A stretch of 64,000 bases of DNA from a bacterium (GTDB lineage: Bacteria; Patescibacteriota; Minisyncoccia; UBA6257; GWB1-50-10), in NCBI GenBank assembly GCA_021801565.1, contig JAJYXV010000003.1, forward strand, positions 293 through 64,292, given 5' to 3'. Under the pieces are notes generated by a model. It was not told where the DNA came from, ran no database searches, and saw only the letters and a program-made list of their open reading frames with translations. Both the position numbers and the translations under genes were made by a program. Below, one piece after another: positions 3 to 58,617 of this stretch. Within the stretch, counting starts at the first letter, position 1. Each line of letters opens with the position of its first letter.

Positions 3-1964
3 ATTTTACCTATTCGTACATATCAGGAACTTGATACAGAAACATTCGCCCCTCTTCTTGGTGGACTTTCGAAAATACAAGAATTTGGTGAGGGGGGGGT
101 AATTCAATATGTTTTTAGACCGGCAAAAAAAGATGCAAAGAAGAATGTTTTTGAAACACTTATTGCGCTTAAAAAAGGAGCAAAGCTTAAAGATGTTATT
201 TCTCGTTCTATTTCCATTTCTGATATAAAAAAAGCAGCGGTTGAGGGAACAAATAAAAATGAGCACGCAGAAAAACTTATTGATGAAAACGCCGTTAAGG
301 CTCTTGAAATGAAGTTATCGAAACCACTTTTTGAAGCAAATGTTCGTGTTCTTTCTTCGGCTCCATCCCAAGAATATGCCGATTTGATTTTAGAGGGGGT
401 AAGCGCTGGATTTTCACAATTTGGAACACCGGAACGGAATGAGTTTAATATAATAAAACAAAAAGATCTAAAAAAATTAATTTATCTTTATTCATTTCGC
501 TTGTTTGATGAGAAACAAAAAATGATATTGAACACGGAAGAGCTTGTAAGTATTTTCCATTTTCCCACGCCGTTTACCGATATTCCGAAGGTAAGAGAAT
601 TAAAATATAAGGAGGTTTCCCCTCCGCCAAATCTTCCAAAAGAGGGGATAAAAATTGGGGAAAGTAGATATAGAAATGAAAAACGGGATATTCGTATGAT
701 GCGCGAAGATAGACGGAGGCACATATATGTTATTGGACAGACGGGTACTGGAAAGACGGTATTTTTGAATAATCTTGTGGGTCAAGATATGGAAAAGGGG
801 GAGGGTGTGTGTGTAATAGATCCCAATGGAGATTTATTTGAAGACCTCCTCGCACGCGTGCCAAAATCTCGACTGAAGGATGTTGTTGTGTTTGATCCTG
901 CAGATCTTGAGCGCCCATTGGGGCTGAATATGCTTGAATATGACCCGCGTTTTCCTGAGCAAAAGACGTTTATTATCAATGAGCTTATGGGGATTTTTGA
1001 TACATTATATGATTTGAAAACAACAGGAGGTCCTATGTTTGAACAATATACAAGAAACGCACTTTTGCTTCTTATGGATGATCCAGGTGACGGGTATACC
1101 ATTCTTGAAATTCCGCGGGTGCTTGCGGATACCGAGTTTAGAAAAAAACTTCTTGCGAAATGTAAAAATATTATTGCAAAAGATTTCTGGGAGAAAGAAG
1201 CGGAAAAAGCTGGGGGAGAAGCATCACTTGCAAATCTCGTTCCATATATCACAAGTAAGTTTAATACATTTATCGCTAATGATTATGTTCGTCCAATTAT
1301 TGCTCAGTCAAAGACTACATTGAAATTCAGAGAAATTATCGACGAGGGTAAAATTCTTCTTGTGAATTTGAGTAAGGGAAAGATAGGAGATTTGAATGCT
1401 GGACTCCTTGGAATGATTTTGGTGGGAAAGGTTACCATTGCTTCATTTTCGCGTGCGGATATTCCAATGGAAAAAAGAAGAGATTTTTATCTTTTTATCG
1501 ATGAGTTTCAAAATTTTACTACTCAAAGTATTGCGACAATTCTTTCTGAATCGAGAAAATATCGGCTGTGCCTTACTATTGCACATCAATTTATCGGTCA
1601 GTTATCTGAAAAAATAAGAGACGCGGTATTTGGAAATGTTGGTTCAATTGTAGCGTTTCGTATTGGTGCAGATGACGCCGAATATCTTGTAAAGCAGTTT
1701 GAGCCGGTATTTAATGTTAATAATCTATTAAACATTGATAATCTGAATGCACATGCGAAATTGATGATTAATAATCAGGTGACAGCCCCATTTAATATGT
1801 TTGAACCGTTTCCTCCAAAAGGGAATGTAGATGTTCCAGAACTTGTGAGAGATTATTCGCGGCTTACTTACGGACGACCGCGTGAAATTGTCGAACAGGA
1901 GATTTATGCGCGGTTGCGTGGGAAAGATTCGCAAATATCAGGAGAGATGAAAAAGCAATTTTGA
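3..1964 (+). CDS. P-loop NTPase resembling TraD/VirD4/HerA-type (T4SS coupling-protein-like, DUF87-like); 5'-partial, frame open to window start
   Basis: ORF 309..1964 (551 aa), with the same frame open without stops from nt 3. Walker A YVIGQTGTGKT, CVIDPNGD motif, Walker B-like LFIDEFQNF, AHQ motif. Confidence 0.5.
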   Translation: MLPIRTYQELDTETFAPLLGGLSKIQEFGEGGVIQYVFRPAKKDAKKNVFETLIALKKGAKLKDVISRSISISDIKKAAVEGTNKNEHAEKLIDENAVKALEMKLSKPLFEANVRVLSSAPSQEYADLILEGVSAGFSQFGTPERNEFNIIKQKDLKKLIYLYSFRLFDEKQKMILNTEELVSIFHFPTPFTDIPKVRELKYKEVSPPPNLPKEGIKIGESRYRNEKRDIRMMREDRRRHIYVIGQTGTGKTVFLNNLVGQDMEKGEGVCVIDPNGDLFEDLLARVPKSRLKDVVVFDPADLERPLGLNMLEYDPRFPEQKTFIINELMGIFDTLYDLKTTGGPMFEQYTRNALLLLMDDPGDGYTILEIPRVLADTEFRKKLLAKCKNIIAKDFWEKEAEKAGGEASLANLVPYITSKFNTFIANDYVRPIIAQSKTTLKFREIIDEGKILLVNLSKGKIGDLNAGLLGMILVGKVTIASFSRADIPMEKRRDFYLFIDEFQNFTTQSIATILSESRKYRLCLTIAHQFIGQLSEKIRDAVFGNVGSIVAFRIGADDAEYLVKQFEPVFNVNNLLNIDNLNAHAKLMINNQVTAPFNMFEPFPPKGNVDVPELVRDYSRLTYGRPREIVEQEIYARLRGKDSQISGEMKKQF

Positions 1965-1975
1965 ACATATAGATT

Positions 1976-2614
1976 ATGAATACATATAAAAATGATTTTT
2001 ATTTAGTTAGTATTATCGGTTTTTTAGTCGGGTGGCTTATGCTTCTCCCGGTAAAAAATCTAGGATTTACCGTAACCCCGCTTCTTATTGCGGGAATCGT
2101 TATTGGGTGTTCGGTTTTTGCCCCTGTTGCACTTGTGGTTTTGAAACTATTAGGAAAATTTTGGCCCGTGCTCGAACAGTTCGGAAAATTTGCTGCAGTA
2201 GGAACATTAAATACACTTCTTGATTTAGGAGTGCTGAATTTGTTTATTCTTCTTACTGATATTTCAGTGGGGGTGACATATTCTGGTTTTAAGGCGGTTT
2301 CTTTTCTTGTTGCAACAACAAACAGTTATTTTTGGAACAAATTTTGGACGTTTCAAAGTGCAACTTCCGTAACGGGAAAAGAATATGGACGATTCCTCCT
2401 TTTTACACTCATTGGAACGGCAGTAAATGTTTCAGTGGCCTCTCTTGTGGTGAATGTGGTTGGCGCTCCTCAGGGGGTAAATCCGAAATTATGGGCGAAC
2501 ATTGGTGCATTAATCGGCGTCTTAGTTTCTTTCATGTTGAATTTTCTTAACTATCGATTTGTGGTTTTTAAAGGTTTGGTTCAAAATTCTGAAACGAAGG
2601 GGAAAGAATTTTGA
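1976..2614 (+). CDS. GtrA-family polytopic membrane protein (polysaccharide synthesis/translocation)
   Basis: 212 aa, multi-TM, with GtrA-like C-terminal motif SYFWNKFWTF...NYRFVVFK. Immediately upstream of a GT2 glycosyltransferase. Confidence 0.55.
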   Translation: MNTYKNDFYLVSIIGFLVGWLMLLPVKNLGFTVTPLLIAGIVIGCSVFAPVALVVLKLLGKFWPVLEQFGKFAAVGTLNTLLDLGVLNLFILLTDISVGVTYSGFKAVSFLVATTNSYFWNKFWTFQSATSVTGKEYGRFLLFTLIGTAVNVSVASLVVNVVGAPQGVNPKLWANIGALIGVLVSFMLNFLNYRFVVFKGLVQNSETKGKEF

Positions 2615-2628
2615 GCACCAAATCTTTA

Positions 2629-2724
2629 CCCCGTTAGATAGAGATAAAATTAAATGTTATCGTATATTACAAATAAGGAAATGTTAAAAAACAAAAAGGT
2701 CAATCTAGAATTATATCTAACGGG
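2629..2724 (+). repeat. Intergenic palindromic element, CCCGTTAG...CTAACGGG family (divergent copy)
   Basis: CCCCGTTAGATAGAG ... TTATATCTAACGGGG inverted termini flank an AT-rich core. Right end abuts the GTG at 2725. Confidence 0.45.
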
Positions 2725-3534
2725 GTGCGCAATTTTATATTCTCGCCTCGCTCGAATAAAATTGACATGAGCAAACCATTTTTATCGGTTATTATTCCAG
2801 CATATAATGAATCAAAACGATTGCCACTTACGCTTATTGATATCGATCGAAAACTATCTCTGCGAGATTATGAATATGAAATATTCGTGGTAAGTGACGG
2901 GTCCCGTGATGAAACTGCGGATATCGCCGAACGATTTTCACATATGATAAAAAATCTTCATGTTATTGCAAATAAAGAAAATCATGGGAAAGGATGGGTG
3001 GTGCGGCAGGGAATGCTTGCGGCAAAAGGAAACTGGAGATTGTTTACCGATGCTGATAATTCAACCTCGATTGAACAATTTGATAAAATGGTTCCATATT
3101 TTTCCGCCGCTGGCGGATCTGCCTATAGCGGAAAAAAATCCTTTGATGTGGTGATAGGGTCAAGGGGAATAAAGGGAGCTGAATTACACCCTCCGCAACA
3201 ATGGTATAAGCAGATATTGGGAAAGATGGGAAATTTATTTATACAGATGGTGGTGCTTTGGGGAATACAGGATACACAATGTGGATTCAAATGTTTTTCT
3301 GAAGAGGTAACGGAAAAAGTATTTCCCCTTATGAAAATTGATCGTTGGGGGTTTGATGTGGAAGTGCTTGTGCTTGCAAAGCAGATGGGATATCGGATAA
3401 AAGAAATTCCGGTGCGTTGGGTGAATGATTTTCGTTCAAAAGTGAGCTTAAGCGCATATATTTCGACGCTTCTCGAGGTTATAAAAATCAGATGGTGGTT
3501 ATGGCGAAAACAGTATAAATTGGAAAAAAATTAA
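2725..3534 (+). CDS. Family 2 glycosyltransferase (dolichyl-phosphate-mannose synthase/GtrB-like)
   Basis: LSVIIPAYNES...VVSDGSRDET GT2 signature. Likely true start is the ATG at 2767 (MSKPFLSVII); the GTG at 2725 is in frame. Confidence 0.75.
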   Translation: MRNFIFSPRSNKIDMSKPFLSVIIPAYNESKRLPLTLIDIDRKLSLRDYEYEIFVVSDGSRDETADIAERFSHMIKNLHVIANKENHGKGWVVRQGMLAAKGNWRLFTDADNSTSIEQFDKMVPYFSAAGGSAYSGKKSFDVVIGSRGIKGAELHPPQQWYKQILGKMGNLFIQMVVLWGIQDTQCGFKCFSEEVTEKVFPLMKIDRWGFDVEVLVLAKQMGYRIKEIPVRWVNDFRSKVSLSAYISTLLEVIKIRWWLWRKQYKLEKN

Positions 3535-3539
3535 TTTTT

Positions 3540-4550
3540 ATGTGGCATTCTGAATTTAGGAGGGATACGGTGTCTGGCGATTGGATTCTTTTTGTTCCGG
3601 GGAGAGCGAAAAAACCTGGTGATTTCAAAAAAAAGAAAGAAAAAAGAAAAGTTGCGCCATTTCATACGTGTCGTTTTGAGCACCCATTTAAAAATATCGA
3701 CGAACATATCATTTTGGGATACACACGGACAAAAAAAGGAGACATAAAGATGGATTGGGATCTTTTAGTGCTTAAAAATAAATATCCTGCGGTGACGCAC
3801 TCCGAAAAAAAAGCATTCCATTATACATCGAAATTTTTTGAACTCATCCCGGGAGTAGGTCATCATGATCTTATTGTGACTCGTGATCATAAGAAAAATT
3901 TTCCGGAGCTTTCGAGTATGGAAGCGTTCAGAGTATTTTCTGCATTCCGTGATCGGTATCTTATGCTTTTTCAAGACAAAAATATTCAATACATTTCCAT
4001 GTTTCATAATTGGGGACATACTGCAGGCGCATCGATATTTCACCCCCATTATCAGATGATTGGTATTCCGGTTGTTTCTTCGCGTATTCTACAAACTCTT
4101 CATGGTGCGCGTAATTATTTTTTGCGGAATAAAAAATGCGTCTTCTGTGCAATGATTGCCGAAGAGAAAAAATACAAAAAAAGAATTATTGCTGAGAACG
4201 AATATGCAATTGCATTTACCCCATATGCATCGCGACATGAGTTTGAAGTAAAAATTTTCCCCAAGAAACATTCCGCATATTTTGAAAATACACTTGATGT
4301 GGAGATGGAATCAGTGACAAAACTTCTTCAGCAAGTACTTCGAAAAATGAAAAAAAATCTTGGGGATCCCGATTATAATTTTTTTATTCATACGGCCCCA
4401 GTGTCCGAAAAAACAGCGAATAAAAATTCATTTCATTGGCACGTGGAAGCACGTCCTGTATGGAATATTGCTGCAGGATTTGAGTTTGATACGGGCGTCG
4501 AGATAAATGTAGTAGACCCCGATTTTGCCGCACAAATTCTAAGAAAATAA
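3540..4550 (+). CDS. galT: Galactose-1-phosphate uridylyltransferase-like HIT-family nucleotidyltransferase
   Basis: N-terminus FRRDTVSGDWILFVPGRAKKP, FHPHYQMIG HIT motif, and a second half-site FHWHVEARP. Confidence 0.6.
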   Translation: MWHSEFRRDTVSGDWILFVPGRAKKPGDFKKKKEKRKVAPFHTCRFEHPFKNIDEHIILGYTRTKKGDIKMDWDLLVLKNKYPAVTHSEKKAFHYTSKFFELIPGVGHHDLIVTRDHKKNFPELSSMEAFRVFSAFRDRYLMLFQDKNIQYISMFHNWGHTAGASIFHPHYQMIGIPVVSSRILQTLHGARNYFLRNKKCVFCAMIAEEKKYKKRIIAENEYAIAFTPYASRHEFEVKIFPKKHSAYFENTLDVEMESVTKLLQQVLRKMKKNLGDPDYNFFIHTAPVSEKTANKNSFHWHVEARPVWNIAAGFEFDTGVEINVVDPDFAAQILRK

Positions 4551-4571: not shown

Positions 4572-4597
4572 CGGAGGACAGTTTCCTCCGTTTTTTT
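4572..4597 (+). terminator. Rho-independent terminator after galT-like gene
   Basis: CGGAGGACAGTTTCCTCCG hairpin followed by TTTTTTT. Confidence 0.55.
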
Positions 4598-4598
4598 A

Positions 4599-4627
4599 TT
4601 GACGTGCCTAGGGAAAGAGGATAATAA
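4599..4627 (+). promoter_or_regulatory. Candidate sigma70-like promoter for the 1041-aa gene
   Basis: TTGACG (4599-4604), 16-17 nt spacer, ATAATAAT -10-like. About 40 nt upstream of ATG 4667. Confidence 0.35.
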
Positions 4628-4666
4628 TGAAGACAGCAATTTATTAACAAAACATAGAGGTAGGTA

Positions 4667-7600
4667 ATGAAAAAGATCATCTTTGATGAAAAGGAATTAA
4701 TTCAAATATATGAGGGATCTCCTTCATATTTTGAGTTGATGAAAAAACTTTCTGCGCTTTACGAAAAACAAAAGAAGGCAAAAGAAATTCCAGAGCGTTT
4801 AGTAGAAAGAAAGTTTATTAATTCTGCAAAATCATTGGCAAAAAGACTTAAATTGGTGAAAGAACACCATCATGCCAAATACTCTTTCCGTTTATGGGAT
4901 GAAAATCGTCTTGCAGAGTTTACTCATGCGGTACGAAAAACAATCCGTGAGAGGAAAAAATATGACGTATTGCTCAAGGATTTTCCAGAGCTGGGAAGTA
5001 CAAATATTGTGTACTTTACGATTCAATCGGCAATCCCTGGCGGTATTAAAGGGATTCGCGATGCAATCGCTATGGTCGGGAGCGTCGAGCTTGATACGCT
5101 TCGTGACGCATTGAATGATGCCGAAAGAGGAGTTTTGGATTGTATGAATGAGCTCTACAAAACAAAACGTATGTTACGTGTCGGAGATGTTGCTGAAGTA
5201 ATCAAAAGCAGCAAAGATAGCATTCGTGGTATTATGGTAAAACTTGCTGCGCAGGGTTTCTTTGTGAATATTCCTGGCGAGCATCACTTGTTTTTCAACA
5301 ATTCTCCAAACTTCTACACCCCAAAGGAATTAATGAAGCTTATCTCGACCGAAGAGCAAAATAGGATTGCAAATGTTCTTCATATGGGTCCTATTACCAC
5401 GCGTCGTCTCGCACAACAGCTGTATGGTCAGGAAAAAGTAAGTAATGCATTTCTTTCTACGTATCTTACTAACCTTACCGAACGCGGATTATTGGAAATT
5501 GATCGAGACACCAGTGAATATTTATTGACTAAAAAGGGAAGTGAATTTGGTATTGATGCTACATCAATTCAAGCTCTTGATATCACCATACTTGAAAACA
5601 AATTTCTTATAAGAGACGAAGAACGTTCAAAGCCGTTTAAGAGTCTTTCAGAAGTAAGAAATGCGGTCATTCAAGACAATGAGGATAAGGAGATAAGGTT
5701 GATTGATATATCAAATCATCTTTCTAAGGATAGCTTCAAATTTCTCACTATCTCAGAAATTCTTTTTGGGAATCAAAATACCGATGTAGCCCTTTTGGAA
5801 AAGATCCTTCTCAAATCGGAACCTGATTTTGCGATTGTAAGCGGTCTTGTTCAAGGCACATTCACAGCGCGAAATGTAAAGCGTCAAAATGAGCTTGTTC
5901 AACCTCGAAAATTATATAAGATTGGATCTCAAATAAGCGCCGCATCGCAATTTCTTAATAAACTTGATGAGCGAACAAAAGGTCCGGTTTGTATTGCGCT
6001 TGGTGATGATGATCTTCGTATTGCTGAAGATTATGCAGATATTGCGCAATTGAATGAGGGAAAAACTTGGACATTTGGCGTGAATTACACAAGTCTTACT
6101 GCAGAATTGCAACGAAGGATTAATATTCGCGAATATCACACAAAACGGAAGATTCAGTTTGAAATAATTTTACCGTATCAATATCGAGTACGTCGCGCAT
6201 TAAAAAATGCGAAAGAAGTGTGGAAGGAAATCGGAGTTAAAAAGTCCGAATACCGTCTTATCATGGAAATTCTCATTTTGAATCGCGCAAAACAACCGTA
6301 TCCTGAAATTTATGAAAAAGTTGTTGATGTCAATGCGTTACTTGGTGGTTTAAAACATGGAATTGTTACACCCGATTCTCTGATTTTAAAAGTTGGCGAT
6401 CGTACTATACAGTTTGTGCATAACACGAATTTTAGTGATGTAACACAATATGTAGATCCGCTTTTTACCTCAGAGAAAATTATGCGACATTTCATGTCTC
6501 GTGATTATCAGAAACTACCATGGATGTTGCTTGATGGACATCAAGAGATGTTTTATGGAACATATTTCCAGAATCACTGGGTTATGTGTCTTCCTGGAAT
6601 GCAGAATTCACTTGATATGGCAATGCACCGCAAAAAAACCCTCGTGACACGAGTTCTTCAATCAAAGTCCTTAAGGCAAAATACATTCCGAAAAGATCCA
6701 TCAACACCAGGGGCTGTTGAAATTGAAGTTTGTACTGAAGGTGGAATTGAAAACGATGGAAGAATCCGTCTTAGATTCTTTAATGATAAGATTATGGATT
6801 TACTTGATCGGGAGAAGGGCAAAAAGCACAAACAAACTGTTATTGGAGTTCTCACTGATCTTCAGTTTGGCTCTCCAACAATGCAGCCCGAACTTGTAAT
6901 AAAATATCTTGATTATTTACTCTACACTCGTGGTGCAAGATTGTTACGCGGAAATGGTGATTGGCTTCAGGGGTTTATCTATCCAGGATTTCCAGCAGAA
7001 TCAAGAACATTGCGGATGGTATCGGTTGATGCTCAACAACGCTTTACAAATGAGTTGTTAGTTCCGCTAATTACCGATGCTCCACACCTGGAAGATGTTG
7101 CTTTCTGGCAGGGGAATCATGAATGGGGTATCTGGAGTAATGCACTAACTGGTCAAAATGCGTTGTATTTTATGGAGGCCGCACTTCAAAGATTTATTGA
7201 TGGAATGAGAAAGGCGGGAAAAAATCCAAAACTCAAAACTGCAAGTACGGTAAGTAGAATTATTATGGCTCGTACCACGAATCCGATGGGTGATAGAATT
7301 CTTTTTCCGTATTTTGCTGAGACGGTAGATGAGTGGTTCAAAATTGCGTACACGCACCAGTGGCTTCCATATGGAGGCGGACGAACACCCGTTGATCAAC
7401 CACGTCGCTGGGTAAGCAACATGGCAAATGCTGCGGGAGATATAAATGTGTTGATTGGTGGAGACAAGCATTCGCTGTGGTTGAATCAGGAAGCGGGAAA
7501 GATTCTTATTCAATTGCCTGCTGCCGCAACTCAAAGTGGATATGAACTTGCTCGAGGACTTATGTCTACTGTAATGTTCGCGCTTCTCGTTGTGGATAAT

Positions 7601-7792
7601 CGAAACGGTTTTACGGTTGAATTTATTCCATGGCAATTTCTTACAAACTATAAGTGTGTAAGTAAATTGTATAAAGGAAAAGACAATCAGTTGATTCTTC
7701 CTTCTGAAGATTCAGTTGATTATCGAAATGGAAAATATTCTCCGTATATCGAGAAAATGATTGATTCGCTTACATATTACAAAAAAATGTAA
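4667..7792 (+). CDS. Large orphan protein (1041 aa): winged-helix-like segments plus C-terminal divergent calcineurin-like metallophosphoesterase motifs
   Basis: Long uninterrupted ORF. wHTH-like segments (LTERGLLEIDRDTSEYLLTKKGSEFG; AEVIKSSKDSIRGIMVKLAAQGFF). Ordered motifs VIGVLTDLQFG / RGNGDWLQG / WQGNHEWG / LIGGDKH, resembling phosphoesterase motifs I-II-III-V with correct spacing. Confidence 0.6.
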   Translation: MKKIIFDEKELIQIYEGSPSYFELMKKLSALYEKQKKAKEIPERLVERKFINSAKSLAKRLKLVKEHHHAKYSFRLWDENRLAEFTHAVRKTIRERKKYDVLLKDFPELGSTNIVYFTIQSAIPGGIKGIRDAIAMVGSVELDTLRDALNDAERGVLDCMNELYKTKRMLRVGDVAEVIKSSKDSIRGIMVKLAAQGFFVNIPGEHHLFFNNSPNFYTPKELMKLISTEEQNRIANVLHMGPITTRRLAQQLYGQEKVSNAFLSTYLTNLTERGLLEIDRDTSEYLLTKKGSEFGIDATSIQALDITILENKFLIRDEERSKPFKSLSEVRNAVIQDNEDKEIRLIDISNHLSKDSFKFLTISEILFGNQNTDVALLEKILLKSEPDFAIVSGLVQGTFTARNVKRQNELVQPRKLYKIGSQISAASQFLNKLDERTKGPVCIALGDDDLRIAEDYADIAQLNEGKTWTFGVNYTSLTAELQRRINIREYHTKRKIQFEIILPYQYRVRRALKNAKEVWKEIGVKKSEYRLIMEILILNRAKQPYPEIYEKVVDVNALLGGLKHGIVTPDSLILKVGDRTIQFVHNTNFSDVTQYVDPLFTSEKIMRHFMSRDYQKLPWMLLDGHQEMFYGTYFQNHWVMCLPGMQNSLDMAMHRKKTLVTRVLQSKSLRQNTFRKDPSTPGAVEIEVCTEGGIENDGRIRLRFFNDKIMDLLDREKGKKHKQTVIGVLTDLQFGSPTMQPELVIKYLDYLLYTRGARLLRGNGDWLQGFIYPGFPAESRTLRMVSVDAQQRFTNELLVPLITDAPHLEDVAFWQGNHEWGIWSNALTGQNALYFMEAALQRFIDGMRKAGKNPKLKTASTVSRIIMARTTNPMGDRILFPYFAETVDEWFKIAYTHQWLPYGGGRTPVDQPRRWVSNMANAAGDINVLIGGDKHSLWLNQEAGKILIQLPAAATQSGYELARGLMSTVMFALLVVDNRNGFTVEFIPWQFLTNYKCVSKLYKGKDNQLILPSEDSVDYRNGKYSPYIEKMIDSLTYYKKM

Positions 7793-7794
7793 TC

Positions 7795-7830
7795 CAAAAT
7801 CCGCTTTTACAAAGGGCGGATTTTTATTTG
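7795..7830 (+). terminator. Rho-independent terminator after the 1041-aa gene
   Basis: AAATCCGC-loop-GCGGATTT followed by TTTATTT. Confidence 0.55.
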
Positions 7831-7857: not shown

Positions 7858-8505
7858 ATGACAAAAGAAGAACTTATCGGGGAACTTGTGCATGATGGGT
7901 ATTTAAAAACACCGTCAATCATTGATGCATTCACCTATGTTGATCGTGTGGATTTCATCTCAGAAGATATGAAGCGATATACATACACAAATGAACCGCT
8001 TCCCATTGGGTTTGATCAGACAATTTCGCAACCGCTTACTGTAGCATTTATGCTTGAACTACTTTCTCCGAAAATCGGAGATGTAATTTTGGATATTGGT
8101 GTTGGTTCTGGGTGGCAGACCGCACTTCTCGCATTTATTATTTCGCGGGAATATGGAGAAGAAGAACACACTCCATCAGTCTTCGGTGTTGAGCGGATTC
8201 ATGAGTTGTTTGAATCAGCAAGACAAAATGTAGAGAAATATCATTACATAAGCAGAAATATTGTTTTACTTAAAGAAGGAGATGGAACGACGGGTTTTCT
8301 GGAACATGCCCCATATGACAAAATTGTCGCCGCTGCAGCAGCGCCTACAATTCCTCAAGCATGGAAGGATCAATTGAAAATAGGTGGCCGTATTGTAGCC
8401 CCGGTGGATGAATCAATTGTCGTTTTGGATAAAAAAGGAACAATGGATTTTGAAGAAAAACGATATTTCGGTTTTCATTTTGTTCCACTTATCTCGGTTA
8501 ATTAA
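7858..8505 (+). CDS. pcm: Protein-L-isoaspartate O-methyltransferase
   Basis: DQTISQPLTVAFMLELL and ILDIGVGSGWQTALLA SAM-binding motifs typical of PCMT. Confidence 0.8.
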   Translation: MTKEELIGELVHDGYLKTPSIIDAFTYVDRVDFISEDMKRYTYTNEPLPIGFDQTISQPLTVAFMLELLSPKIGDVILDIGVGSGWQTALLAFIISREYGEEEHTPSVFGVERIHELFESARQNVEKYHYISRNIVLLKEGDGTTGFLEHAPYDKIVAAAAAPTIPQAWKDQLKIGGRIVAPVDESIVVLDKKGTMDFEEKRYFGFHFVPLISVN

Positions 8506-16010: not shown

Positions 16011-18500
16011 ATGGATTTTATTCTTGAGAAGAATATACACGGGCTTACCCTAGATGAAGTAGAAAGACGTTTTAAACAATATGGAAAAAACGTTTTTCTT
16101 AAAAAGAAACGCGCCCATGCTTTTACCCTTTTTATCGAAAAGTTTAAAAGTCCACTTCTTCTTATTCTTATTAGTGCAGCAATTATCTCGTTTTTTTTAG
16201 GAGAAAAAACAAACGGGTCTATTATACTCGTAATGGTAGTTATTTCCGGAGTCCTTGATTTTGTGAATACGTATAAATCTGAAAAGGCAATTGCGAAACT
16301 TATTTCGAAGGTAAAAACAACAGCGACAGTTATGCGTGAAGGGGAGAAGCAAGAAATCGAGATATCAGAAATAGTTCCCGGTGATATTATATTTCTTTCG
16401 GCGGGGGATATCATTCCAGCCGATGGTATAATAATTGAAGCAAATGATTTTTTTGTAAATCAATCAACTCTTACCGGTGAATCTCTTCCTATACAAAAAA
16501 TGAATAAGGGAAAAGAAGTGGAGAAGTCGATTTTTGAAGATGAAAAACGTGTTTTTTCTGGTTCAAGCGTGACGACTGGATATGCGGTGATTGAAGTTAC
16601 TGCGACGGGAAAATCAAGTGAGTTTGGAAAAATTGCGGAACATCTCCAAGCGCGCCAGCCGGAAACCGACTTCGAAAAAGGGATAAAACGATTCAGTTTT
16701 TTCATTCTTCGAATCACCACTGCCCTTGTGGTGCTTGTGTTTTTAGGAAATACACTTCTTGGACGCGGGGCGTTTAATTCTTTTGTATTTGCCATCGCAA
16801 TTGCAATAGGACTTACCCCGGAACTTCTTCCTATTATTATGACGGTTGCTTTAAGTAGGGGTTCAATCCGTATGGCAAAAAAAGATGTTGTGGTAAAGAC
16901 ACTATCATCCATACAAAGTTTTGGAGGAATGAATATTTTTTGTACGGATAAAACTGGGACGCTTACGGAAGATAAAATTGTACTTATGAAATATATGGAT
17001 GGATTTGGAAATCCAGAAGAGCACATATTTCTTTATTCATATTTGAGTAGCTATTTCCATACCGGCATTAAAAGTCCGCTTGATGCGGCTATAAAAATGT
17101 ATAAAGAAGTAAATATTGATACATTTAAAAAAATCGATGAAATTCCGTTTGATTTCGAAAGAAAAAGAGATTCGATTATTGTGGAAGAAAACAAGAAAAG
17201 GATATGTATTACGAAAGGTGCCCCAGAAGATATATTACACATTTCCGGTTCTTACGTTATAAATCAAGCATCACGCAAGATAGATGATGAGTCACAAAAA
17301 AGAATATTTGAGCAGTTTACAAAACTAAGCGGAGAGGGATTTCGTGTGCTTGCGGTTGCTGTAAAAGATGTTCAAAAAAAAGAAGAGTATAAAAAGGAAG
17401 ATGAATCGGATATGCAATTTCTCGGGTTTGCCGTATTTCTTGATCCTCCAAAACTTACCGCAAGGGAAGCGGTAAAAGACCTTTCAGCGCTTGGTGTGGA
17501 AATAAAAATTCTCACTGGTGATAGTGAAATATTGACACAAAAGATATGTCGCGATCTTGATATTCCGATGAAAGGAACGTGCACTGGTAGGGAGTTGGAA
17601 AAGATGGACGCTGATATGTTTCTCAAATGCGTCCATGGGAATACTATATTTGCTCGGATTTCTCCTATAGAAAAAGAGAAAATTATTTTAGCCCTTAAAA
17701 ACGATGGGAATTCGGTAGGATATTTAGGGGATGGAATCAATGATGCGCCGGCACTTCGTGCAGCCGATGTGGGTATTTCAGTAAATAATGCCGTCGATAT
17801 AGCAAAAGAGACAGCCGATATAATTTTGCTTCGCAAAAGTCTTCGGGTACTTCATGACGGGGTGATAGAGGGAAGGAAGACGTTCCAAAACACGATGAAG
17901 TATATCATGATGGGGCTCAGTTCGAATTTCGGAAATATGGTTTCGATGACAAGTGCTTCATTTTTTCTTCCATTTTTTCCCATGCTCCCAACGCAAATTT
18001 TACTGAATAATTTTCTTTATGATACGTCGCAATTTGGGCTCCCGACAGATTCTGTTGATAGAGTGGATATAGAAAAACCACAAAAGTGGGATATGCGCTT
18101 TGTTGAATGGTATATGGTGATATTTGGACTTCTCGGTTCTTTTTTTGATTTTGTTACTTTTGGCATACTCCTCTTTGTATTCCATTTTTCGGGATCGCAG
18201 TTCCAAACAGGATGGTTTTTAGCATCACTTGCCGAGCAAATATTTGTTATTTATATTATCCGTACGAAGAAAATTCCATTTTTTCAAAGTGCTCCGAGTA
18301 AGATTCTATTTTTGAATACATTTTTCCTTTTTATCCTTGCGTGGATATTACCGTATATTTCCATTGGTAAATTATTTTCTTTTTCTCCACTTCCCCTTAA
18401 TGTTCTTGTTACGTTGAGCGGGCTTGTTATTGCTTATCTTGTATGCGCCGAATTTTTGAAACACGCGTTCTATAAGAAATATAAAAAAACTTATCTTTAA
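16011..18500 (+). CDS. Cation-transporting P-type ATPase (MgtA / Ca2+-ATPase-like, P2/P3 type)
   Basis: CTDKTGTLT phosphorylation motif. TGES actuator motif (LTGESLP). GDGINDAPAL. About 10 TM segments. 829 aa. Confidence 0.8.
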   Translation: MDFILEKNIHGLTLDEVERRFKQYGKNVFLKKKRAHAFTLFIEKFKSPLLLILISAAIISFFLGEKTNGSIILVMVVISGVLDFVNTYKSEKAIAKLISKVKTTATVMREGEKQEIEISEIVPGDIIFLSAGDIIPADGIIIEANDFFVNQSTLTGESLPIQKMNKGKEVEKSIFEDEKRVFSGSSVTTGYAVIEVTATGKSSEFGKIAEHLQARQPETDFEKGIKRFSFFILRITTALVVLVFLGNTLLGRGAFNSFVFAIAIAIGLTPELLPIIMTVALSRGSIRMAKKDVVVKTLSSIQSFGGMNIFCTDKTGTLTEDKIVLMKYMDGFGNPEEHIFLYSYLSSYFHTGIKSPLDAAIKMYKEVNIDTFKKIDEIPFDFERKRDSIIVEENKKRICITKGAPEDILHISGSYVINQASRKIDDESQKRIFEQFTKLSGEGFRVLAVAVKDVQKKEEYKKEDESDMQFLGFAVFLDPPKLTAREAVKDLSALGVEIKILTGDSEILTQKICRDLDIPMKGTCTGRELEKMDADMFLKCVHGNTIFARISPIEKEKIILALKNDGNSVGYLGDGINDAPALRAADVGISVNNAVDIAKETADIILLRKSLRVLHDGVIEGRKTFQNTMKYIMMGLSSNFGNMVSMTSASFFLPFFPMLPTQILLNNFLYDTSQFGLPTDSVDRVDIEKPQKWDMRFVEWYMVIFGLLGSFFDFVTFGILLFVFHFSGSQFQTGWFLASLAEQIFVIYIIRTKKIPFFQSAPSKILFLNTFFLFILAWILPYISIGKLFSFSPLPLNVLVTLSGLVIAYLVCAEFLKHAFYKKYKKTYL

Positions 18501-56916: not shown

Positions 56917-58617
56917 ATGAAAGAAGAACGAACATGTCAAAACTGTAAAAACCGATTTGTTATCGAGTCGGAAGACTTTGATTTTTATAAAAAAATTAGT
57001 GTTCCACCCCCAACATGGTGTCCGGAATGCAGACTTATTCGGCGATTTTCGTTTATGAATTTGTGGAGTCTGTATAAACGGAAATGCTCAAAGTGTGGTA
57101 AATCAATGGTAAGTATCCATGCAGAAGATACCGAATTTCCAGTCTACTGTCAGCCATGTTGGTGGGCCGACGATTGGGATGGAACCGAATATGCTATGGA
57201 ATATAACCAAAATCGGCCATTTCTTGAGCAGGTACGGGAGTTGGTTAATAAAACTCCATACATGGGTCTTGAGAGTGCATATCTCACCAATACAAACAGT
57301 GATTATACAAACGGAACGGCATATTCAAAAAATTGTTATATGACGTTTTGGGCAGATTATTGTGAAAATGTTTATTATTCGATATTTCTTTTTAATCTTC
57401 GTGATTCGTTAAATTGTTATAGAATGAAAGATAGTGAGCTTTGTTATGAAGATGTTGGATGTTATAAGTGCTACACGACGTATTATTCTGAAGAATGTGA
57501 TTCATGTACCGATGTATGGTTTTCACGCTCTTGTACTGGATGCACAAATTGTTTTGGGTGTATTAATTTGCGGAATAAAAGCTATTGTATTTTTAATGAG
57601 CAATATACAAAAGAAAAATATTTTGAAAAATTGAAAGAATTTAATCTTTCATCATATTTTGCATTGGAGAATATAAGAAGGAAGGTTTATGAATTTTGGT
57701 TGAAATATCCTCGCAGAGCATATATAGGGAATAGTTTGAATGTAAATGTGACGGGTGACTATGTATATGAGTCGAAGAATTCACGCGACACCTACATGGC
57801 AAGTGGTGTTGAGGATTCGCGGTTTACTCAATTTATCTCAGTTGCAAAAGCGCATGATTCTTATGATTATACCGGATGGGGAAATGGCGCAGAACGTATT
57901 TATGAGTCATGTGTTGTTGGAGAGGGGGCAAATAATATAAAGTTCTCAAATGAGTGCTGGCCCGATGTATTGAATATTGAATATTCAATTTATGCAATTA
58001 CGTGCAAAAATGTTATGGGTTGTGTGAATCTAAAGCGCAAGGAATATTGTATTTTAAATAAACAATATACAAAAGAAGAATATGAAAAATTATCAACGCA
58101 TATCCGCGAAGAGATGATTCGAAATCCCTATGTTGATTCTTTGGGTCGCACATGGAAATATGGTGAATTTTTACCGTATGAACTTTCTCCTTTCACATAT
58201 AATCAAACAATAGCGTTGGCTTTTTTCCCAAAAAATAAGGAAGAAATTTTAAAAGAAGGAATACGGTGGCATGAGGCAGAAGAAAACGAATATATAATTA
58301 CCATACAAGCGAAAGATCTTCCGGATTCCATTCAAAATACAGATGAATCTATTTTGAAGGAAGTTATTGCGTGTGAAACTTGTGGAAAGGCGTATAAAAT
58401 TCTTCAGGGAGAATTAGACCTCCTAAGGAGATTTTCATTGCCGATATATCACCATTGTTCAACGTGTCGAAGAAATGCATTATTTTTTAGAACAAATTTA
58501 CCGCGTTTATACAATAGAAATTGTATGAAGTGTAATAAACAAATAAATACTTCATATGCACCCGACAGACCAGAAATTGTGTATTGCGAACAATGCTATC
58601 AAGCGGAAATGGTGTAG
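56917..58617 (+). CDS. Large cysteine-rich protein with terminal zinc-ribbon domains and internal Cys repeats (uncharacterised)
   Basis: N-terminal CQNC-x21-CPECRLIRR is mirrored at the C-terminus as CETC...CSTCRRN. Internal repeats GC[IV]NL[RK]xKxYCI[FL]N[EK]QYTKE[KE]Y occur twice. 566 aa. Confidence 0.5.
   Translation: MKEERTCQNCKNRFVIESEDFDFYKKISVPPPTWCPECRLIRRFSFMNLWSLYKRKCSKCGKSMVSIHAEDTEFPVYCQPCWWADDWDGTEYAMEYNQNRPFLEQVRELVNKTPYMGLESAYLTNTNSDYTNGTAYSKNCYMTFWADYCENVYYSIFLFNLRDSLNCYRMKDSELCYEDVGCYKCYTTYYSEECDSCTDVWFSRSCTGCTNCFGCINLRNKSYCIFNEQYTKEKYFEKLKEFNLSSYFALENIRRKVYEFWLKYPRRAYIGNSLNVNVTGDYVYESKNSRDTYMASGVEDSRFTQFISVAKAHDSYDYTGWGNGAERIYESCVVGEGANNIKFSNECWPDVLNIEYSIYAITCKNVMGCVNLKRKEYCILNKQYTKEEYEKLSTHIREEMIRNPYVDSLGRTWKYGEFLPYELSPFTYNQTIALAFFPKNKEEILKEGIRWHEAEENEYIITIQAKDLPDSIQNTDESILKEVIACETCGKAYKILQGELDLLRRFSLPIYHHCSTCRRNALFFRTNLPRLYNRNCMKCNKQINTSYAPDRPEIVYCEQCYQAEMV

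Follow-up and report, generated by a model that had tools for sequence, protein, structure and literature searches.

DP1 is the small subunit of the archaeal family D DNA polymerase (PolD) and a proofreading 3'-5' exonuclease (PDB 5IHE, 6KNB), and the B-subunits of Pol alpha, delta and epsilon are its inactive eukaryotic descendants (Pfam PF04042). Meanwhile, Mre11 and SbcD are homodimeric metallophosphoesterase (MPE) nucleases that act as a pair on DNA ends. In this study, we analysed a 64,000-nt stretch of DNA (the window; positions 293 to 64,292 of contig JAJYXV010000003.1, assembly GCA_021801565.1) from a bacterium of the candidate phyla radiation (CPR, or Patescibacteria), a group with tiny genomes and many conserved genes of unknown function. 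The window contains a large gene encoding a protein of 1041 aa. By profile similarity and by predicted fold, the nearest known relative of the C-terminal MPE domain of this protein is the PolD DP1 proofreading exonuclease.

In the AlphaFold model built on an alignment of 78 sequences (mean predicted local distance difference test (pLDDT) 91.6, predicted template modelling score (pTM) 0.79), the protein starts with a helical N-terminus, followed by two winged-helix domains and a helical linker; then come a degenerate MPE copy, which carries a conserved helical insert, and the MPE domain at the C-terminus. Residues 309-686 were poorly modelled (pLDDT 54) when 7 sequences were used. It is very likely that this is an MPE-fold protein with the above layout and with a conserved, probably functional site.

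The C-terminal metallophosphoesterase domain

The initial annotation, which was made from the sequence alone, had proposed winged-helix segments combined with a divergent, possibly inactivated calcineurin-like phosphoesterase. The combination is supported by PF00149 matches in 13 of 45 diverged relatives (best E = 1.6e-6), by matches of the family profile to PDB sequences, and by fold searches with the model, which found the MPE beta-sandwich fold in the C-terminal domain. The features of this domain, with motifs placed by a 123-sequence family alignment, are as follows.

6824-7630, + strand: C-terminal MPE domain, DP1-like (residues 720-988)
6857-6874, + strand: motif I, D731-L-Q733-F-G-S (DxQxGS instead of DxHxG)
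6956-6961, + strand: motif II, G764-D765 (bridging Asp)
7112-7123, + strand: motif III, G816-N-H-E819
7355-7357, + strand: motif IV, H897, which was absent from the initial list of motifs
7460-7471, + strand: motif V, G932-D933-K-H935 (most family members have GHxH)
7631-7789, + strand: C-terminal tail (residues 989-1041), short helices in the model, conserved in the close clade and without a family match

The sequences of this alignment are 15-50% identical overall, with a mean column identity of 12%, and conservation was counted on its columns. We found that motifs II (GD), III (GNH[DE]), IV (H) and V (GHxH) stand in canonical order and are 97.5-100% conserved family-wide. For instance, G764 is kept in 122/123 sequences and D765 in 123/123, G816, N817 and H818 in 122/122 each, E819 in 115/122, H897 in 121/122, and H935 in 118/121; position 933 is His in 111 sequences and Asp in 10, with Asp in the window protein. 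In motif I, the ligand Asp is invariant (D731, 123/123) and the His of DxH is systematically replaced by a Gln that is itself conserved (Q733 in 115/123, His in 8), followed by G735 (117/123) and S736 (114/123).

Every peptide motif listed in the initial annotation is present in the translation, and DLQFG (731-735), NGDWLQG (763-769), GNHE (816-819) and GGDKH (931-935) lie on the most conserved columns of the family. The suggestion of inactivation does not agree with these counts: the catalytic residues are invariant or nearly so over 123 diverged sequences, and the Gln of motif I is a hallmark of the family rather than a sign of decay. Thus, the family-wide conservation of the catalytic set argues for an active enzyme and not a pseudo-enzyme. 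Gln is able to ligate a metal through its amide oxygen, although DxQ is still not a canonical motif; Gln733 would probably shift the metal preference at site 1, with catalysis retained. Its fold and motifs II-V place the 1041-aa protein in the MPE superfamily, its motif I being non-canonical. The protein shares motifs II-V, the beta-sandwich fold and the PF00149 matches of its relatives with the generic calcineurin-like MPEs (PF00149 / CL0163), and differs from them in the Gln of motif I and in lying, as a single sequence, below PF00149 detection.

Comparison with DP1 and with Mre11/SbcD

When the family profile was compared with PDB sequences, Thermococcus kodakarensis DP1 was matched at E = 1.4e-4 with 78 sequences and at 2.8e-6 with 123 sequences, whereas the next MPE-fold matches, including Pyrococcus abyssi DP1 at 0.18, had E-values of 0.1 or worse. 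In the fold searches, DP1 was ahead by 4 Z units and by about three orders of magnitude in Foldseek E-value. It was followed by the Pol delta B-subunit (13.5), Vps29 (13.1), the Pol epsilon B-subunit (12.6), purple acid phosphatase (12.5), Mre11 (12.3), and then many other MPEs. HMM (hidden Markov model) alignments showed that local features are shared with DP1 in addition to the generic MPE motifs: motif I has DxxxGS, GD-(I/V)-(I/V)-x-G...YP....E comes after motif II, and a conserved Gln precedes motif III. These features correspond to the near-invariant S736, Y772, E778 and Q790 of the family.

However, several differences separate the 1041-aa protein from DP1. Motif I is DxH in DP1 and DxQ in this family. 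The hosts of DP1 are archaeal and those of the B-subunits eukaryotic, whereas the hosts of this family are bacterial (CPR). In addition, the protein carries two winged-helix domains fused N-terminally in a single chain of about 1000 aa. In DP1, an oligonucleotide/oligosaccharide-binding (OB) fold domain is inserted in the N-terminal part of the phosphodiesterase (PDE) domain (PMC6355029). No OB fold was matched in any search with our protein; instead, the alignments show the 350 residues preceding its PDE domain as a degenerate second copy of the MPE fold, which might still harbour a small OB-like element.

Furthermore, the NCBIfam DP1 model NF003118 was matched by 2 of 45 members at E ~3e-4, far under its cut-off and below an equivalog-level score, and PF04042 was matched by none of the 45 (E <= 0.01). 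In the DP1/B-subunit family, the partner catalytic subunit is DP2 or a B-family polymerase with a Zn-finger C-terminal domain; close to our gene, there is no polymerase gene, DP2-like, B-family or other, in the window or at 17 family loci. Since the curated models were not reached, the OB domain was not recognised, the host is bacterial and a polymerase partner is not known, we do not file the protein as a member of the DP1/B-subunit family.

The likeness to Mre11 and SbcD is lower than that to DP1. It lies in the pairing of MPE domains: the tandem of a dead and a live copy could imitate their dimer, and the pairing would then be intramolecular and asymmetric. There is no adjacent Rad50/SbcC gene, and no match to a capping domain was found. 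The lack of an SbcC/Rad50 partner sets the protein apart from Mre11/SbcD systems, and it does not qualify as a classical winged-helix regulator either.

PDE domains dedicated to polymerase proofreading were described as specific to PolD in the 2019 PolD structure paper (PMC6355029), and a bacterial relative of the PolD exonuclease bears on the evolution of this proofreading module. A rather improbable but far-reaching idea would make the family a bacterial branch within the DP1/polymerase B-subunit lineage, which is held to be archaeal and eukaryotic. The protein might then work as the exonuclease module in a replication or repair polymerase assembly of CPR bacteria that has gone unrecognised, or it might be the trace of an ancient exchange of replisome components between archaea and CPR. 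If so, the dead-plus-live MPE pair with its DxQ site would be a new way to build such an exonuclease.

The middle domain, a degenerate second MPE copy

The 350 residues before the catalytic domain contain a second, degenerate MPE copy that the initial annotation had overlooked.

5714-6784, + strand: middle domain, degenerate MPE-fold copy or pseudo-MPE (residues 350-706), from hhalign and secondary-structure order
6095-6340, + strand: insertion of helices into the middle domain (residues 477-558), including the conserved PYxxRxGRxL and KSEYRLIMEIL, the latter being the third winged-helix-like segment of the initial annotation, from the AlphaFold model

With the 123-sequence alignment, hhalign aligned residues 345-700 with residues 715-1010 over 246 colinear columns (score 37.8, E = 1.4e-4), whereas the reversed middle-domain profile scored 11.0 and twenty column-shuffled profiles scored 7.3-14.5. 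The signal appeared only with these 123 sequences; a 7-sequence alignment gave none. In addition, the two domains have the secondary-structure order beta-alpha-beta-alpha-alpha-beta-alpha in common in the model. Parallels can also be seen by eye between the middle and C-terminal domains, namely LTISEILFGNQ and VLTDLQFGS, SGLVQG and NGDWLQG, GDDD and GNHE, VHNT and YTHQ, and DGHQE and GGDKH. The acidic GDDD that had been pointed out near residue 445 is indeed present, at 446-449, and its role is now that of a degenerate motif III aligned with GNHE.

At the positions that correspond to the metal ligands, conservation is poor in the middle domain (E364 in 63/120, D447 in 60/122, H585 in 70/122, H625 in 51/123), and the bridging Asp is absent. 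Therefore, judging from these columns, the middle copy is most likely non-catalytic. Its insertion is made of helices 477-508, 515-522, 528-540, 547-551 and 555-558, and is conserved at Y504 (95/123), R507 (94/123) and the Gly at 509 (111/123; Arg in the window protein). Taken together, a fused pair of inactive and active MPE copies and a conserved DxQ are structural oddities in a heavily studied superfamily.

The N-terminal part and the winged-helix domains

4667-5107, + strand: N-terminal all-helical region (residues 1-147), helices only, pLDDT ~85-90, close clade only
5117-5299, + strand: winged-helix domain 1 (residues 151-211)
5348-5548, + strand: winged-helix domain 2 (residues 228-294), which holds the segment LTNLTERGLLEIDRDTSEYLLTKKGSEFG of the initial annotation

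The N-terminal helical region had no fold or family match. The two winged-helix domains gave sub-threshold matches to models of HrcA, Rrf2, Lrs14, HTH_45, Sso10a and RosR, and they are also supported by the topology of the model. Three winged helix-turn-helix segments had been counted initially, but only these two domains are supported: the third segment (527-552) lies inside the helical insertion of the middle domain, which has no winged-helix match. The scores stayed below the curated cut-offs of the family models (17.5 against 25.5 bits for HTH_45, 18.4 against 90 for Lrs14). Proteins of the MarR/TrmB/ArsR/Lrs14/Sso10a kind are small dimeric regulators, whereas here the domains have the winged-helix fold within an enzyme of 1041 aa and do not take the form of a small stand-alone dimer. 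The pair is predicted to bind DNA.

Family size and distribution

The gene had been called an orphan, which is true for close relatives only. A word-indexed search found 6 full-length homologues of 49-94% identity, and alignment queries gave the identical 6. However, 163 clusters at 50% identity came up in an exhaustive profile search (E <= 1e-3), and 130 of these were at E <= 1e-10. We scanned 155 family proteins with three sub-profile HMMs. The C-terminal domain (715-1010) was matched in 144 of them, the middle domain (345-700) in 106, and the N-terminal part of the close clade (1-344) in 33, many of these only from about position 140 on. When profiles of the near and far clades were compared with each other, their winged-helix regions (151-344) nevertheless proved homologous (Prob 96.6%, E = 6e-10). 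Therefore, the core architecture (two winged-helix domains, middle domain and C-terminal domain) is family-wide.

The orthologous loci come from metagenome-assembled genomes named Paceibacterota, Jorgensenbacteria, 'Saccharibacteria' and 'Patescibacteria group', while Levybacteria and Yanofskybacteria contribute more distant members. The family has no name, and its named members are CPR/Patescibacteria. Its proteins are annotated as 'hypothetical protein', except that a fragment of one relative is called 'Calcineurin-like phosphoesterase domain-containing protein' in UniRef. Pfam and NCBIfam lack a model for the middle domain, for the winged-helix pair and for the architecture as a whole, and nothing on this family was found in the literature on CPR with MPE or DP1 and on tandem or pseudo-dimeric MPEs. 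The family is real, uncharacterised and fairly widespread, and both the family and its architecture are new within a superfamily that is known.

The range of the family may extend beyond Patescibacteria. A ComN-like 'Post_transc_reg' gene (L016:3921-4208) adjoins the distant member P0109, and a gene for an SLH-domain protein (L013:17159-18472) lies near another distant member, P0079; we take both neighbours to be associated with non-CPR bacteria.

Proposed function and rival explanations

On balance, we lean towards the reading that the 1041-aa protein is a nuclease or phosphodiesterase of nucleic acids, with a substrate suggested by its relatives. The C-terminal domain would be an active phosphodiesterase that depends on a binuclear metal centre. 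The dead MPE copy would pack on it as an intramolecular pseudo-dimer, replacing the homodimer of Mre11/SbcD and serving as the other half of a dimer-like platform. Its conserved helical insert may cap or select the substrate. Meanwhile, the winged-helix pair would tether the enzyme to DNA or to a partner bound to nucleic acid. The most likely substrate would be a nucleic-acid end or a single strand, attacked by 3'-5' exonuclease or single-strand endonuclease activity in repair or in processing associated with replication. A nucleic-acid substrate is the likeliest because the closest active relatives (DP1, then Mre11/SbcD) are DNA nucleases and because the enzyme is fused to two winged-helix domains. 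If the protein is a nuclease, it would be an extra component for DNA maintenance in CPR bacteria.

Several points weigh against this reading. The known substrates of MPE domains also include nucleotides, lipids, sugars and phosphoproteins, and likeness of fold does not fix the substrate; likewise, winged-helix domains can serve protein contacts instead of DNA binding. The window protein alone gives no PF00149 match even at E <= 10 and no match to any MPE model at threshold. Single-protein searches (Pfam, NCBIfam, PDB sequences, PADLOC, PHROG) returned only the sub-threshold winged-helix matches and a weak match to the phage exonuclease family phrog_284 (E = 0.005), and the assignment of the window protein to the MPEs is thus transitive and structural. 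In addition, its metal site is atypical, with Gln in motif I and Asp at 933 in motif V, and the gene has no conserved neighbour that encodes a partner such as a Rad50/SbcC-like ATPase, polymerase, helicase or ligase.

It is possible, though unlikely, that the protein hydrolyses a small molecule or an envelope precursor (a nucleotide, cyclic nucleotide, Ap4A, UDP-sugar or lipid pyrophosphate), and that its winged-helix domains serve regulation or protein contacts. One relative matches YfcE, and in the close clade the gene stands beside envelope genes, with Ddl upstream in five species or next to GtrA-GT2-GalT. However, this neighbourhood does not persist outside the close clade, DP1, which leads the fold matches, is a nuclease, and a family-wide winged-helix pair in a protein of about 1000 aa is unusual for small-molecule MPEs. 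A catalytically dead scaffold or DNA-binding regulator, akin to the inactivated eukaryotic polymerase B-subunits or Vps29, is improbable; this was the pseudo-enzyme option of the initial annotation. It would account for the Gln at motif I, for the inactive MPEs among the structural neighbours after DP1 (Pol delta, epsilon and alpha B-subunits, Vps29), and for the clear degeneration of one of the two MPE copies. But dead MPEs lose their ligand set, as in the eukaryotic polymerases, where all the hydrolase active-site residues of DP1 have been lost (PMC6355029), whereas D731, D765, N817, H818, H897 and H935 are kept here in 97.5-100% of 121-123 diverged sequences, with only His or Asp at position 933. 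The degenerate copy in the same protein exemplifies what relaxed constraint looks like.

The protein is large, stand-alone and unannotated and combines nuclease-like with DNA-binding domains, and the distant member P0079 lies in a ribosomal-protein operon beside an IS30-like transposase; these traits would suit an anti-phage defence or toxin effector, which the initial annotation had offered as an option, or a cargo of mobile elements. We regard such a role as very improbable. PADLOC-DB defence models matched 0 families at E <= 10, and no relatives were found in IMG/VR viral contigs (searched with the close-clade alignment), phage records or plasmids. Furthermore, the order Ddl/GalT - gene - PCMT is conserved across nine species loci, the divergence of the gene equals that of its housekeeping neighbours, and the locus has no composition anomaly.

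Genomic context and inheritance

Upstream of the 1041-aa gene lie genes for a VirD4/TraG-like coupling protein, GtrA, a GT2 glycosyltransferase and a GalT-like protein, and downstream lie a protein-L-isoaspartate O-methyltransferase (PCMT), PGK, a DHH/DHHA1 protein and RNase H. Farther away, the window encodes aminoacyl-tRNA synthetases and a P-type ATPase along with penicillin-binding proteins, a Mur ligase and DnaK, the last three being bacterial genes. The GC content is about 37% throughout. Among nine distinct species loci, the upstream gene is Ddl in five and GalT in four, as it is in the window, and PCMT is found 3' of the gene in all 8 species loci with downstream DNA, as well as in the window. 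The Jorgensenbacteria orthologue is 49% identical, compared with 49% for PGK and 46% for PCMT in the same pair. This equal divergence, together with the conserved local synteny, indicates vertical inheritance under strong, housekeeping-like constraint. The gene is thus chromosomal, vertically inherited and stand-alone, a large CPR gene constrained like its housekeeping neighbours and lacking a curated family model or a described function.

The neighbourhood look-ups recovered lineage-level synteny with PCMT and Ddl/GalT only; outside the close clade, the neighbourhoods differ and no partner recurs. The initial description of a stand-alone gene without an obvious partner therefore agrees with the whole family, across which no functional partner is conserved.

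The PCMT gene (window 7858-8505) directly follows the large gene, also in loci L001-L008, down to 43% identity of the large protein, including the high-GC lineage of L007. This adjacency may reflect lineage synteny or a functional link.

The gene and its flanking signals

4572-4598, + strand: terminator-like hairpin and T-run closing the upstream GalT-like gene (7-bp stem, 5 G-C pairs)
4599-4628, + strand: sigma-70-like promoter match TTGACG-N18-AATAAT (or N17-TAATAA), a consensus match only
4667-7792, + strand: complete open reading frame (ORF), 1041 aa and stop codon
7796-7829, + strand: terminator-like hairpin and U-rich tract 3' of the stop codon (13-bp stem)

The intact ORF of 1041 codons was read correctly from the start: the frame is uninterrupted, its homologues are full-length (49-94% identity), and a Shine-Dalgarno GAGG at 4657-4660 precedes the ATG with a spacing of 6 nt. 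The bracketing of the gene by a promoter and terminators, also proposed initially, stands in part. Hairpins are present on both sides. The upstream one (4572-4590) has a folding energy (dG) of -11.1 kcal/mol (z = -2.2) and is followed by TTTTTTT, and the downstream one (7796-7824) has -13.6 kcal/mol (z = -4.2), with 0 of 200 shuffles folding equally well; the latter was not picked up by a simple terminator scan. The promoter-like site agrees with the consensus at 10 of 12 positions, but such matches are not commoner here than in shuffled DNA (8 in the region against 11.4 expected). On these consensus matches, it is reasonable to regard the gene as a putative self-contained transcription unit.

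Other observations on the window and the related loci

The VirD4/TraG-like type IV coupling protein (window 309-4550; also in L002, L004 and L009) forms a conserved block with GtrA, GT2 and a GalT/HIT-like gene in four CPR lineages, and the full-length coupling protein in L002 also carries DUF8128. The coupling protein may be related to the type IV secretion system of Patescibacteria described in bioRxiv 10.1101/2025.01.22.634366.

P0079 (1283 aa, L013:8001-11852) lies between L24 and L14 inside the ribosomal-protein operon (L013:3604-13320), together with the IS30-like transposase (HTH_38+rve) and several unannotated ORFs, which suggests an insertion. Two ORFs of equal length (261 aa) that flank P0079 were considered as repeats and rejected, being unrelated. 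A 55-nt direct repeat was found at L013:7492-8001, ending exactly at the start codon of P0079, with two identical copies, one copy of 78% identity and a weaker fourth at 4855. It could be a regulatory or leader repeat.

A P-type cation ATPase gene lies about 8 kb downstream of the large gene (window 16011-18500), and another lies directly upstream of P0047, the distant Levybacteria homologue (L010:4493-7015). This recurrence is probably a coincidence.

A 566-aa ORF at 56917-58617 of the window had no Pfam match at E <= 1e-5. Across the window (1-64000), the GC skew is positive in every 2-kb bin, the cumulative skew rises monotonically, and almost all ORFs of at least 200 aa are on the + strand, a pattern that fits a single replichore with strong co-orientation of genes.

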